NCBI RefSeq assembly: GCF_003334785.1
Contig: NZ_QOWV01000015.1
Reading direction: 5' to 3' (one strand)
DNA from: Escherichia coli
GTDB lineage: Bacteria; Pseudomonadota; Gammaproteobacteria; Enterobacterales; Enterobacteriaceae
DNA: 64,000 nt
The notes under the pieces were generated by a model. The model searched no databases. It saw only the letters and a list, made by a program, of their open reading frames with translations, and was not told the origin of the DNA. Below, in pieces: positions 34,992 through 53,038 of this stretch (its first letter is position 1; every line of letters begins with the position of its first letter). The position numbers and the translations under genes were made by a program.

Positions 34992-35129
34992 TCTTAATCT
35001 CCTCATCATTCGCGGGCAAAAGTTACTAAGAGTGAGCCTGGATGGCAAGCCGGAATTGATGATCCTCGACTCAGACATTAGACAAGGTTATGCTCTGTAA
35101 AAAAGTTATTACAAAAAGGAATAGATAAT

Positions 35130-35504
35130 ATGGCTTCAACTGCACGCTCCCTTCGCTACGCGCTGGCAATCCTGACCACTTCGTTGGTGACACCTTCCGT
35201 CTGGGCACATGCGCATTTAATGCATCAGTATCCTGCGGCAAACGCGCAAGTGACAGCATCTCCGCAGGCAATCACTTTAAACTTCTCGGAAGGCGTTGAA
35301 ACAGGATTCAGTGGTGCAAAAATCACGGGGCCAAAAAACGAAAATATTAAAACATTACCGGCGAAGCGAAATGAGCAGGACCAAAAGCAACTGATTGTTC
35401 CACTGGCCGATTCGCTGAAACCCGGAACCTACACCGTTGACTGGCATGTTGTTTCGGTGGACGGGCATAAAACGAAAGGACACTACACCTTTAGCGTGAA
35501 ATAA
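35130..35504 (+). CDS. yobA: YobA, CopC-family periplasmic copper-binding protein
   Basis: 124-aa ORF with signal peptide; CopC-like. Confidence 0.85.
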   Translation: MASTARSLRYALAILTTSLVTPSVWAHAHLMHQYPAANAQVTASPQAITLNFSEGVETGFSGAKITGPKNENIKTLPAKRNEQDQKQLIVPLADSLKPGTYTVDWHVVSVDGHKTKGHYTFSVK

Positions 35505-35507
35505 ACC

Positions 35508-36380
35508 ATGCTGGCGTTTACCTGGATCGCGCTGCGATTTATCCATTTCACCTCGCTGATGCTGGTTTTTGGCTTCGCAATGTACGGTGCCTGGCTGGCC
35601 CCCTTAACGATTCGTCGTTTGCTGGCGAAGCGTTTTCTGCGTTTACAACAGCACGCTGCCGTCTGGAGTTTGATCAGTGCCACTGCAATGCTCGCCGTTC
35701 AGGGCGGGTTGATGGGAACGGGATGGAAAGATGTATTTTCGCCAAACATTTGGCAGGCTGTTTTGCAAACGCAGTTTGGTGGCGTCTGGTTATGGCAAAT
35801 TGTTCTCGCCCTCGTAACGTTGATCGTCGCCCTTATGCAACCGCGGAATATGCCACGTTTGCTGTTTATGCTCACTACCGCGCAATTTATTCTGCTGGCG
35901 GGAGTGGGGCATGCGACGCTGAATGAAGGGGTAACGGCGAAAATCCATCAGACTAATCACGCGATTCACCTGATTTGTGCGGCGGCGTGGTTTGGGGGAT
36001 TACTGCCGGTGCTCTGGTGTATGCAACTCATCAAAGGCCGTTGGCGACACCAGGCTATTCAGGCGCTGATGCGTTTTTCCTGGTGCGGGCATTTTGCGGT
36101 GATCGGCGTACTGGCAAGCGGCGTGCTTAATGCATTGTTGATTACCGGATTTCCCCCCACGATTACGACTTACTGGGGCCAACTCTTATTGCTCAAAGCC
36201 ATCCTGGTGATGATTATGGTGGTCATTGCGCTGGCTAATCGTTATGTTCTTGTACCGCGCATGAGGCAGGATGAAGATCGTGCGGCTCCCTGGTTTGTGT
36301 GGATGACTAAACTCGAATGGGCGATAGGTGCGGTAGTGCTGGTGATCATCAGCCTGCTTGCGACTCTCGAACCTTTTTGA
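35508..36380 (+). CDS. yebZ: YebZ, CopD-family inner membrane protein
   Basis: 290-aa polytopic ORF; 3-bp gap from yobA. Confidence 0.85.
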   Translation: MLAFTWIALRFIHFTSLMLVFGFAMYGAWLAPLTIRRLLAKRFLRLQQHAAVWSLISATAMLAVQGGLMGTGWKDVFSPNIWQAVLQTQFGGVWLWQIVLALVTLIVALMQPRNMPRLLFMLTTAQFILLAGVGHATLNEGVTAKIHQTNHAIHLICAAAWFGGLLPVLWCMQLIKGRWRHQAIQALMRFSWCGHFAVIGVLASGVLNALLITGFPPTITTYWGQLLLLKAILVMIMVVIALANRYVLVPRMRQDEDRAAPWFVWMTKLEWAIGAVVLVIISLLATLEPF

Positions 36381-36392
36381 TGGATTACGAAA

Positions 36393-36734
36393 ATGATGAA
36401 AAAAAGTATTCTGGCGTTTCTGTTACTCACCAGTTCTGCAGCGGCGCTGGCTGCACCGCAGGTGATTACCGTCAGCCGTTTTGAAGTGGGTAAAGACAAA
36501 TGGGCGTTTAATCGCGAAGAGGTGATGCTGACTTGCAGACCGGGTAATGCTTTGTATGTCATTAACCCAAGTACCCTCGTGCAGTATCCTTTAAACGATA
36601 TCGCACAGAAGGAAGTTGCCAGTGGGAAGACTAAAGCCCAACCCATTTCGGTGATTCAGATTGATGATCCCAACAATCCCGGCGAAAAAATGAGTCTGGC
36701 ACCGTTTATAGAACGAGCTGAAAAACTCTGTTAA
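36393..36734 (+). CDS. yebY: YebY, DUF2511 periplasmic protein
   Basis: 113-aa ORF with signal peptide [20 protein letters not shown]. Confidence 0.8.
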
Positions 36735-36761: not shown

Positions 36762-36805
36762 ATAAAAAAACCGCCTCAGTTCTTTCACCAGAACGGGCGG
36801 TTTTT
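36762..36805. terminator. bidirectional terminator (yebY on plus, RyeA on minus)
   Basis: aaaaaaaccgcctcagttctttcaccagaacgggcggttttt. Confidence 0.7.
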
Positions 36806-37040
36806 AACATTTAAGCTGATGACCACCGCGCTTTTTATTGACCATTTTGCACGCAAACTGGAAAACCTGGCGTCGTCATCTATTCTTAAAGGGCAAGGCA
36901 ACTAAGCCTGCATTAATGCCAACTTTTAGCGCACGGCTCTCTCCCAAGAGCCATTTCCCTGGACCGAATACAGGAATCGTGTTCGGTCTCTTTTTATCTG
37001 TTAAAAGCCAGAAGCATTTCCTTCGCTGACTTTATAGTCA
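36766..37040 (-). ncRNA. ryeA: RyeA (SraC) antisense sRNA overlapping SdsR
   Basis: Known sense/antisense pair at this locus between yebY and pphA; boundaries approximate. Confidence 0.4.
36896..36995 (+). ncRNA. sdsR: SdsR (RyeB) sigma-S-dependent Hfq-binding sRNA
   Basis: Recalled sequence gcaaggcaactaagcctgcattaatgcc...ccatttccctggaccgaatacaggaatcgtgttcggtctcttttt with 3' terminator hairpin plus T-run on plus strand; 5' end approximate. Confidence 0.6.
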
Positions 37041-51838: not shown

Positions 51839-52507
51839 TCCTTCCTCAATCTTGAGTAACCCCGTCGTTGAAGGGTTACTCAATTCATCCTGATTATACG
51901 CACTGTCATGGTGCAACTGCTTCAAATTAAAACTCTGGTCTGACTTCAAATAATTATCATATTATTTATTTGCGTAACGGGATATCAGAAAAAGATATTT
52001 ACCCCATTAATTTATTAGGATGTTTACATCGGATTTGTGATTAAGCGTGGTATTATTTATTAGCGAAACGTTTCTCTCTTGATTTTTTTGCTCATTCATC
52101 AATTTTTCTTATTTTAAATTTACAATCCCTTTGGGGATTGACTTCTCTTTAGGGTAATTAATAGCCGTTAACTGACTGTTTTATGAGAAAAAGTGATATA
52201 ACTTTTTATTCATTGCATAGCAAAAAATGTGATATTGCACGCACTATGTAATAACTTCTCCCACTGGCCTGGAACAACTGAACTTATTGAACTATGTTAG
52301 AAAATACGCCAGTTTAAGTATCTGCCTGAACTGGCAAGGTTAAGCACAATGATATATCGGCGCGTATTCCGTTGCATAAGTGTGCAAAAAAAGTGGAAGA
52401 CGTATCGAGATTTGTGCGTCTGATCGAGACATGTTTAAAAATGGCTTGCCATAATTAACGTTGTATGTGATAACAGATTTCGGGTTAAACGAGGTACAGT
52501 TCTGTTT

Positions 52508-52651
52508 ATGTGTGGCATTTTCAGTAAAGAAGTCCTGAGTAAACACGTTGACGTTGAATACCGCTTCTCTGCCGAGCCTTATATTGGTGCCTCATGCAGT
52601 AATGTGTCAGTTTTATCTATGTTATGCCTGCGGGCGAAGAAAACAATCTAA
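52508..52651 (+). CDS. yobF: YobF, 47-aa small stress-induced protein
   Basis: [53 protein letters not shown] read by eye; 12 bp upstream of cspC; below track cutoff. Confidence 0.7.
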
Positions 52652-52663
52652 GGAATTTTTCAA

Positions 52664-52873
52664 ATGGCAAAGATTAAAGGTCAGGTTAAGTGGTTCAACG
52701 AGTCTAAAGGTTTTGGCTTCATTACTCCGGCTGATGGCAGCAAAGATGTGTTCGTACACTTCTCCGCTATCCAGGGTAATGGCTTCAAAACTCTGGCTGA
52801 AGGTCAGAACGTTGAGTTCGAAATTCAGGACGGCCAGAAAGGTCCGGCAGCTGTTAACGTAACAGCTATCTGA
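52664..52873 (+). CDS. cspC: cold-shock-domain protein CspC
   Basis: 69-aa [40 protein letters not shown]... with RNP1 motif. Confidence 0.95.
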
Positions 52874-52919
52874 TCGAATCCACTGATCTGAAGTGTGAAT
52901 ACGCTTCAATCTCGCTATA

Positions 52920-52947
52920 AAGCCTCGTCGAATGCGAGGCTTTTTAC
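52920..52947 (+). terminator. intrinsic terminator after cspC
   Basis: aagcctcgtcgaatgcgaggcttttt. Confidence 0.8.
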
Positions 52948-53038
52948 TATGCTTTATCTTCGCTCCTGGCGTTCGGATATTTGCCCGCCGCGTGATTCGC
53001 GTTACACTTGCGGCCTTTAGTATCCTGCCGGAGTTGTC

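Follow-up and report, generated by a model that had tools for sequence, protein, structure and literature searches.

The yobA-yebZ-yebY locus of Escherichia coli is probably a copper-acquisition operon under FnrS control

What do a CopC-like and a CopD-like protein do in a chromosome where no copper oxidase or copper regulator stands beside their genes? The question is raised by yobA-yebZ-yebY, a locus in the 64,000-nt stretch of E. coli DNA analyzed here (the window), for which a preliminary description had called both the physiological metal and the regulator unclear. Our reading, to which we give a probability of about 0.82, is that the locus is AZY, the chromosomal operon through which E. 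coli acquires copper, with import by YobA and YebZ and control by FnrS. The identity of AZY, its copper function, and its regulation by FnrS are already known from the literature. What is added here comes from sequence comparison: a nine-genus promoter footprint, the finding that matches to CueR, CusR, Zur, and Fur motifs upstream of yobA do not exceed chance, and a case against the published copper boxes.

Pfam and NCBIfam matches agree with the earlier assignment of the three genes to a CopC-like, a CopD-like, and a DUF2511 protein (Table 1). The open reading frame (ORF) list and the sequence also confirm the exact spacing (3 bp between yobA and yebZ, 12 bp between yebZ and yebY) and with it the one-operon reading. 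The gene order is of the AZY type (copC-copD-DUF2511), the genes are tightly spaced, and there is one conserved promoter upstream and one terminator downstream; as read from this anatomy, yobA-yebZ-yebY is a single transcription unit. The 2.5-kb locus is found, identically annotated and with at least 95% identity, in 5426/5426 complete E. coli genomes. Seven further enterobacterial genera keep the gene order, with a yobA-yebZ gap of 1-5 bp in all seven and a yebZ-yebY gap of 14-26 bp in all but one; the exception is the Salmonella locus, where yebZ and the yebY ORF as called have 47 bp in common.

Table 1. Features of the yobA-yebZ-yebY locus (positions in the window)
Feature	Coordinates	Strand	Description	Source
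Predicted sigma-70 promoter of yobA	35066..35094	+	-35 TCGACT 35066..35071, 17-nt spacer, -10 TATGCT 35089..35094	
"Copper boxes" of the literature	35096..35113	+	TGTAA 35096..35100, 8 nt, TTACA 35109..35113	
Putative FnrS sRNA pairing site	35113..35133	+	spans yobA Shine-Dalgarno (AAGGAA) and AUG; predicted 20 bp	
yobA	35130..35504	+	124 aa; periplasmic CopC-family Cu(II)-binding protein	ORF list, Pfam, NCBIfam
yebZ	35508..36380	+	290 aa; CopD-family inner-membrane copper importer	ORF list, Pfam, NCBIfam
yebY	36393..36734	+	113 aa; periplasmic DUF2511 protein	ORF list, Pfam, PDB 7N0J
Intrinsic terminator closing the operon	36766..36805	.	fold -19.8 kcal/mol, z = -4.3	

The AZY locus of K-12 (b1841-b1839) is the same locus, with order, spacing, and functional residues in agreement (PMC8689200, PMC11923076). 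Both have holE upstream and SdsR/RyeA and pphA downstream, and their promoter regions show a single difference in 138 bp. Six conservative amino acid differences separate the proteins (YobA T31M and A44S; YebZ T74K, I93V, and L219I; YebY N81K), none of them at metal or disulfide residues.

The reported lack of an adjacent copper oxidase or regulator holds for the entire window: In the annotation of collinear genomes we found no multicopper oxidase, no CopB/PcoB, and no CopRS, CusRS, or CueR across the 64 kb, and the sole other copper-named gene is cutC, ~34 kb off. CopC and CopD do stand alone here, as had been described, but this is not unusual, since ~17% of proteobacterial copD operons are of the DUF2511 type (PMC11923076).

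YobA matches the Pfam CopC family (PF04234) at 4.3e-27, the NCBIfam equivalog NF007636 with 263 bits (cut-off 129), and NF033814 CopC with 140 bits (cut-off 95). Its predicted signal peptide ends in PSVWA, followed by HAHL, and cleavage after VWA would expose His27 as the first mature residue; in an alignment with the solved CopC chains 6tpb, 1m42, and 5icu, His27 falls on their first residue. The Cu(II)-site residues that were to be looked for in a CopC protein are all there: His27, Asp111, and His113 (D-x-H) align with VSVDTHK of CopC 6NFQ and are invariant across eight genera. The Met-rich Cu(I) site of the two-site PcoC/CopC subclass is absent from mature YobA, whose single Met and lack of Cys place it in the Cu(II)-only class ("C0-2" in PMC8689200). 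The K-12 protein, 98% identical to YobA here, binds Cu(II) with a KD of ~3 nM by isothermal titration calorimetry, has 100-1000 times weaker affinity for Zn, Ni, Co, and Hg, does not bind Cu(I), and shows undetectable binding of Fe(II) and Mn(II) (PMC8689200).

YebZ matches Pfam CopD (PF05425) at 1.7e-26 and NF033808 CopD with 299 bits (cut-off 195; residues 4-290 covered). As in the CopD family, where copC is adjacent or fused, the copC-family gene yobA ends directly upstream. A Kyte-Doolittle scan picked out seven distinct hydrophobic segments, of which the first is broad, and missed a helix expected at about residues 50-70; the literature gives eight transmembrane helices. A structure search found no solved CopD-family structure for YebZ, of which an AlphaFold analysis has been published. 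YebZ has both His135 and His154, and neither varies in eight genera, even where identity falls to 44%. When YebZ is overexpressed, the Cu content of the cell goes up, but that of Zn, Fe, or Co does not; the H135A substitution lowers uptake and H154A abolishes it (PMC11923076). In the same work, YobA raised copper uptake and YebY dampened it (PMC11923076). This evidence for uptake consists of overexpression and reporter assays, not of purified reconstituted transport.

The metal that the preliminary description left unclear is copper, as the YobA affinities (PMC8689200) and YebZ overexpression (PMC11923076) show. These published specificity data refute a role in handling some other metal (zinc or iron, for example) with Zur or Fur as the regulator, a reading to which we give virtually no credence. 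znuACB does lie within the window, ~15 kb from the operon, and a lone GATAAT hexamer occurs at 35125..35130; however, the hexamer is not conserved in the nine-genus alignment, and the best Zur match (11/23 mismatches) and the best Fur match (8/19) are both at chance level.

YebY matches Pfam DUF2511 (PF10709) at 5.8e-45 and PDB 7N0J "YebY" at 2.9e-58, the 7N0J chain beginning at residue 21. Cys48 and Cys113, which form a disulfide in the crystal structure (7N0J; PMC8689200), are both present and invariant across the genera compared. YebY shows the highest conservation of the three, with 76-88% identity in the cross-genus comparison, and its homologues come without copC or copD in about half of cases. 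According to Hadley 2021 (PMC8689200), YebY has its family and fold in common with MlbQ of Microbispora, a DUF2511 protein of lantibiotic self-resistance. MlbQ, however, is a lipoprotein in an actinomycete ABC-transporter resistance cluster, whereas YebY is soluble in the periplasm and its gene is coupled to copC and copD.

The role of AZY is copper uptake and delivery, not resistance, and either uptake or delivery may be its main physiological part. Hadley 2021 concluded "not import" (PMC8689200), and Palmer 2025 revised this (PMC11923076). In the AZY deletion, copA-lux induction is 3-4-fold lower, mar-lux is down 80-90%, and sensitivity to quinolones and ampicillin is up (PMC11923076). NDH-2 activity drops in yobA and yebY deletions but not in a yebZ deletion (PMC8689200), and since YebZ is dispensable for this phenotype, import and periplasmic delivery may be separable. 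AZY might thus chiefly metallate periplasmic or membrane enzymes (NDH-2, possibly the haem-copper oxidase cytochrome bo3), with cytoplasmic entry through YebZ secondary. We consider this unlikely, yet worth weighing: Besides the NDH-2 pattern, FnrS is reported to turn the operon off anaerobically alongside genes of the aerobic lifestyle, and the component that is most conserved, and about half of whose homologues come without copC or copD, is YebY. Against it, cell copper rises on YebZ overexpression in a manner dependent on His135 and His154, and the triple deletion lowers both CueR-reported cytoplasmic copper and mar activation. Delivery to enzymes and import are also not mutually exclusive.

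In the copper-acquisition reading, periplasmic YobA, with its signal peptide removed, would capture Cu(II) through the amine and imidazole of His27, Asp111, and His113. Copper would pass from YobA to YebZ, a CopD-family protein of the inner membrane with reportedly eight helices, which would move it into the cytoplasm along a path that needs His135 and His154, with disulfide-bonded periplasmic YebY restraining import. YobA and YebY would also support the copper supply of the membrane enzyme NDH-2, and imported copper would help to derepress the mar regulon. Translational coupling within the operon, like the energy source of transport, is something that we infer. Cu(II) binding, uptake, histidine dependence, the YobA and YebY roles, and the NDH-2 and mar phenotypes are published; the sequence itself yielded the gene anatomy and key residues, the terminator, and the stretch where FnrS would pair, and it showed no metal-regulator boxes.

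A comparable use of CopC and CopD domains is found in Bacillus subtilis ycnKJI, where a CopC domain and a CopD membrane domain likewise serve copper acquisition; the CopC domain of YcnJ (PDB 9C14) matches YobA at 5e-10. There, however, the two domains are fused in YcnJ, whereas YobA and YebZ are separate, and the accessory protein is YcnI (DUF1775) instead of the DUF2511 protein YebY. Judging by reference titles in Hadley 2021, ycnKJI encodes, or is acted on by, a dedicated copper-responsive repressor (YcnK, plus CsoR), whereas AZY is without an adjacent regulator or detectable metal operator.

How, then, is AZY regulated? A search with YebZ gave four Escherichia loci, which are too close for footprinting; other genera were reached through YobA homologues and exact-protein contig look-ups. 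In the resulting alignment of nine genera TCGAC and TTATnCT never vary, whereas the spacer and flanks do, and we predict a conserved sigma-70 promoter of yobA here, with a start site probably near 35101. It was found by this conservation after a simple promoter scan had missed it; the promoter matches 8/12 consensus positions and so falls below the threshold of such a scan. At the other end of the operon, none of 200 shuffles was as stable as the terminator fold. The stem has an A-run before it and a U-run after it, so the terminator should be usable from both strands, and RyeA, a convergent RNA, ends there in its long form, as mapped from K-12 coordinates. This terminator also escaped a simple scan, its loop and bulge being larger than that scan allows.

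A consensus scan upstream of yobA for CueR, CusR, Zur, and Fur, the motifs proposed for checking in the preliminary description, yielded no site above chance, and HprR/CusR, FNR, CpxR, and MarA/SoxS/Rob matches were at chance level too. Of the consensus strings used, that of the copper box was checked against real sequence (cusC, pcoA, and pcoE).

Hadley 2021 cites copper boxes at -34 and -22 (PMC8689200), positions that agree with the TGTAA and TTACA half-sites of Table 1. Real copper boxes read ATTACA-N4-TGTAAT at pcoA and TGACAA-NN-TTGTCA at pcoE and cusC. The yobA half-sites are instead everted, with 8 nt between them, and lie on the downstream side of the -10 element. Citrobacter, Salmonella, Buttiauxella, and others have lost the left half-site, and the boxes are not conserved beyond Escherichia. 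The best match to the copper-box consensus has 5/14 mismatches, which 24% of random segments equal. We therefore doubt that a CusR/PcoR operator lies at this site, given its wrong orientation, spacing, and position and its lack of conservation.

This bears on the view of AZY as a remnant module for copper resistance or sequestration, induced by copper via CusR/PcoR-type boxes upstream of yobA. Its proteins are indeed homologous to PcoC/PcoD and CopC/CopD: Plasmid pco (pcoABCDRSE) and pseudomonad cop (copABCDRS) also contain adjoining CopC-fold and CopD-fold proteins, YobA is 40% identical to PcoC, and solved PcoC and CopC structures match YobA at 1e-11 to 1e-17. One transcriptome GO class groups yobA with cus, copA, and cueO, and the boxes have been stated in print. 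However, unlike pco and cop, AZY is without a multicopper oxidase, CopB, or a two-component regulator and has yebY instead; YobA has no Met-rich Cu(I) site, and there is no copper box and no resistance phenotype. The AZY deletion grows like the wild type at 0-2 mM Cu with unchanged copper tolerance, and overexpression does not rescue a copA deletion (PMC8689200). The tolerance data, the missing partners, and the chance-level boxes largely refute a resistance module, and we regard it as very improbable.

The regulator assigned in the literature is the sRNA FnrS. One published list has yobA-yebZY among operons that are FNR-repressed but have no ChIP peak, and gives its regulation through FnrS as known (PMC3688515); another, of FnrS-mRNA interactions used for comparing target-prediction tools, also includes it. 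We find a putative matching site at the yobA ribosome-binding site: With FnrS nt 36-62 as the input, a 20-bp duplex with its single-stranded CCAUAUUGUCUUACUUCCUUUUU stretch is predicted at -21.8 kcal/mol, compared with -7.7 +/- 2.3 for shuffles, none of which (0/300) did as well. The core of the site, AAAAAGGAA, is invariant in nine genera. Duplex prediction with full-length FnrS was uninformative, since long loops inflate the energies, and ranked the yobA site 20th of 12,788 windows. Under anaerobiosis, FNR would induce FnrS, which would pair over the Shine-Dalgarno sequence and AUG of yobA and shut the operon down. Other FnrS targets (sodB, folE, gpmA, cydDC, and others) are likewise FNR-repressed without an FNR ChIP peak, an effect attributed to FnrS. 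No other operon in the category-6 list (PMC3688515) is concerned with metal trafficking, and Hadley 2021 notes yobA-yebZY as the only sRNA-regulated copper gene cluster (PMC8689200).

With FnrS assigned and a matching motif at the ribosome-binding site, the earlier statement that the regulator is unclear largely falls; what stands of it is that no DNA-binding regulator motif exceeds chance. The sequence argues against the copper-box idea and points to a constitutive promoter with sRNA control. It is conceivable, and we put this forward tentatively, that AZY has no copper-sensing transcription factor at all and uses a plain conserved sigma-70 promoter tuned only by respiratory state through FnrS, perhaps also by pH via YdcI, a LysR regulator with a reported ChIP-exo peak at the yobA promoter (Gao 2018).

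If so, the published "copper boxes" would have no operator function, which is a small correction and not a discovery. AZY has been published as one of few specific routes of copper entry into the bacterial cytoplasm and as a link between copper and mar-dependent multidrug resistance. Under the tentative regulatory scheme above, enterobacterial copper uptake would follow oxygen and cuproenzyme demand, not copper supply.

The window is chromosomal E. coli DNA, and the locus is the AZY operon (yobA-yebZ-yebY), which has been characterized in two papers (Hadley et al. 2021, PMC8689200; Palmer et al. 2025, PMC11923076), and it belongs to the CopC, CopD, and DUF2511 families and to the AZY operon type. 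The preliminary description gave three genes spaced 3 bp (yobA-yebZ) and 12 bp (yebZ-yebY) apart, with no copper oxidase or cop regulator nearby. The ORF list, sequence, and family matches agree on every coordinate, with both gaps exact, and by the annotation of collinear genomes the whole 64-kb window contains no multicopper oxidase, CopB/PcoB, or CopRS/CusRS/CueR; the observation is therefore fully confirmed. The surrounding 2.5 kb are 100% identical to several sequenced strains and are present at ≥95% identity in all 5426 of 5426 complete E. coli genomes, annotated as holE / yobA / copD / yebY / pphA. Since DUF2511 occurs in about 17% of proteobacterial copD operons (PMC11923076), this "stand-alone" arrangement is a common type.

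Features of the AZY locus and of other parts of the window
Feature	Position	Strand	Details
yobA	35130..35504	+	124 aa; Pfam CopC 4.3e-27; NCBIfam NF007636, 263 bits (cut-off 129)
yebZ	35508..36380	+	290 aa; Pfam CopD 1.7e-26; NCBIfam NF033808, 299 bits (cut-off 195)
yebY	36393..36734	+	113 aa; Pfam DUF2511 5.8e-45; NCBIfam none
Predicted yobA sigma-70 promoter	TCGACT 35066..35071, 17 nt, TATGCT 35089..35094	+	Nine-genus conservation
Predicted holE promoter	TTGCCA (complement of 35043..35048), 17 nt, TAACTT (complement of 35020..35025)	-	Nine-genus conservation
Putative yobA copper-box half-sites	TGTAA 35096..35100; ATTACA 35108..35113		Position per Hadley 2021
Shine-Dalgarno/FnrS block	35113..35133 (predicted FnrS pairing)		Third conserved spacer feature, nine-genus alignment
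Terminator hairpin	36766..36805		After yebY; fold -19.8 kcal/mol, z = -4.3
SdsR/RyeB sRNA	36896..36995	+	114 bits
SraC/RyeA sRNA	36855..36999	-	175 bits; overlaps SdsR/RyeB antisense
cutC	639..1385	+	Annotated copper homeostasis protein
MicL sRNA	1157..1464	+	Rfam RF02654, 370 bits; inside cutC
torZ	2898..5327	+	In-frame stop at codon 199, about 3492..3494
ES036/CssrF match	5400..5442		
Repeat between ruvB and znuB	15554..15881		231-bp segment repeated at 91% identity, 97-bp offset
naRNA4/CssrE match	15753..15828		Overlaps the 231-bp repeat
cspA-type thermoregulator 5' UTR match	52488..52948		Upstream of gene annotated cspE in KL53

The window's proteins differ from those of K-12 at two (YobA), three (YebZ), and one (YebY) residues, and the functional residues are all intact. 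YobA, for which an inspection of the CopC Cu(II)-site His/Asp residues had been proposed, has His27, Asp111, and His113, with a single Met in the mature chain; YebZ has His135 and His154, and YebY has Cys48 and Cys113. Citrobacter, Salmonella, two Enterobacter-like taxa, Intestinirhabdus, Buttiauxella, and Dryocola all keep these residues unchanged. In alignments, His27 falls on the first residue of the solved CopC chains 6tpb, 1m42, and 5icu, and the D-x-H motif on its counterpart in CopC 6NFQ. A structure search with YebZ found no solved CopD-family structure; YebY recovered PDB 7N0J, the 1.8 Å structure of this periplasmic protein, which has a Cys-Cys disulfide and is MlbQ-like (PMC8689200). 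Less is understood about YebY than about the other two proteins, yet its conservation across eight genera is by far the highest (76%-88% identity; YobA, 62%-75%; YebZ, 44%-70%).

The physiological metal, previously described as unclear, is copper according to published binding and uptake data. YobA binds one Cu(II) (KD about 3 nM) but not Cu(I); its affinities for Zn, Ni, Co, and Hg are 100-1000 times weaker, and its ligands are predicted to be His27 together with the N-terminal amine, Asp111, and His113 (PMC8689200). Overexpression of YebZ raises cellular Cu, not Zn, Fe, or Co, and this rise requires an energy source; uptake is reduced by H135A, abolished by H154A, raised by YobA, and decreased by YebY (PMC11923076). 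Deletion of AZY lowers CueR-reported cytoplasmic copper 3-4-fold and mar-operator activity by 80%-90%, with a copper-dependent gain in sensitivity to norfloxacin, ciprofloxacin, and ampicillin (PMC11923076).

We consider AZY to be, with a probability of about 0.8, a copper-acquisition system with YobA capture, YebZ import, a YebY brake, and anaerobic shut-off by the sRNA FnrS. Periplasmic YobA would capture Cu(II) and hand it to YebZ, which would import copper via His135 and His154, with YebY restraining import; YobA and YebY may also supply membrane cuproenzymes. AZY deletion lowers NDH-2 activity, an effect that needs yobA and yebY but not yebZ (PMC8689200). A tentative alternative, which we think rather unlikely, is that AZY serves mainly in periplasmic or membrane metallation; this reading overlaps with copper acquisition and does not exclude it. 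The closest system in its working is YcnJ-based uptake in B. subtilis, but AZY uses separate proteins, has another accessory protein, and lacks a dedicated repressor.

Classical copper resistance under copper-box control would fit the "copper boxes" mentioned at -34 and -22 of yobA (Hadley et al. 2021, PMC8689200), and one transcriptome GO class co-lists yobA with cus, copA, and cueO. Copper and oxidant tolerance are, however, unchanged on AZY deletion (PMC8689200). We compared the yobA half-sites with genuine boxes read from sequence: AAAATGACAATTTTGTCATTTT between cusR and cusC, ATTACAcgatTGTAAT upstream of pcoA, and TGACAAAATTGTCA upstream of pcoE. The yobA half-sites are everted, in the order opposite to that of genuine boxes; they are spaced 8 nt apart rather than 4 (or 2 in the TGACAA type), and they lie downstream of the predicted -10, whereas genuine boxes lie over the -35. 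The left half-site is missing beyond Escherichia and Intestinirhabdus. A CusR/PcoR operator here is therefore unlikely, and the resistance reading, contradicted by the phenotypes as well as by the box comparisons and motif scans, is very improbable. Lacking the oxidase, CopB, regulator, and operator of the cop/pco resistance systems, AZY falls outside that group.

In the holE-yobA spacer, aligned from nine genera, the divergent arrangement is kept throughout. The predicted promoters stand back-to-back (34992..35065, minus strand for holE), their -35 elements 17 bp apart, and we read a probable yobA transcription start near 35101. No operator-like footprint is visible in this alignment, because the promoter spacer and flanks are unconserved. 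The proposed promoter scan for CueR, CusR, Zur, and Fur, run also with HprR/CusR, FNR, CpxR, and MarA-type consensuses, gave best matches no better than random window segments. Another metal under Zur or Fur, which runs against these scans and the published metal specificity, is the least probable reading. A YdcI (LysR) ChIP-exo peak has been reported at the yobA promoter (PMC6237786) and, for sigma-E, a weak SELEX peak within the spacer (PMC5493296).

The regulator had likewise been left unclear; the literature assigns FnrS (Hadley et al. 2021, PMC8689200). The operon is among FNR-repressed operons without an FNR ChIP peak known to be FnrS-regulated (Myers 2013, PMC3688515), and yobA appears in an FnrS-mRNA interaction list for comparing target-prediction tools. 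Taking FnrS from the K-12 annotation, we predict 20 base pairs between its single-stranded stretch CCAUAUUGUCUUACUUCCUUUUU and a site that includes the yobA Shine-Dalgarno AAGGAA and AUG. The pairing energy is -21.8 kcal/mol (shuffled targets, -7.7 ± 2.3; 0 of 300 as good). The core AAAAAGGAA is invariant in nine genera and the remaining pairing mostly kept; thus, the operon has an assigned regulator, and the motif to match it is present. Expression would start from a constitutive-looking promoter and be turned off anaerobically by FnrS. MazF cleavage is reported at ACA 35111..35113, which precedes the yobA AUG by 19 nt, and 23 nt upstream of yebZ (PMC5001579); after the former cut, the FnrS site would sit in a very short leader.

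The hairpin after yebY has an A-run before its stem and a U-run after it. Projecting K-12 coordinates onto the window places the end of the long RyeA form at this terminator, so AZY and RyeA converge on one bidirectional hairpin.

Elsewhere in the window, cutC lies about 34 kb from AZY, and its position gives no functional link. The copper phenotype first assigned to cutC was later credited to MicL. Given its in-frame stop, torZ is a pseudogene in this strain; an "internal stop" is annotated in the 100%-identical genome FDAARGOS_1248. In strain KL53, whose AZY locus is 100% identical, a prophage tail region replaces 1..8411 and yecE is truncated at the boundary; this boundary, about 8412 by yecD/yecE, appears to mark where a prophage inserted in a strain-specific way.

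Everything central about AZY is already published. The useful remainder is a testable correction: Copper may have no control over AZY transcription at all.
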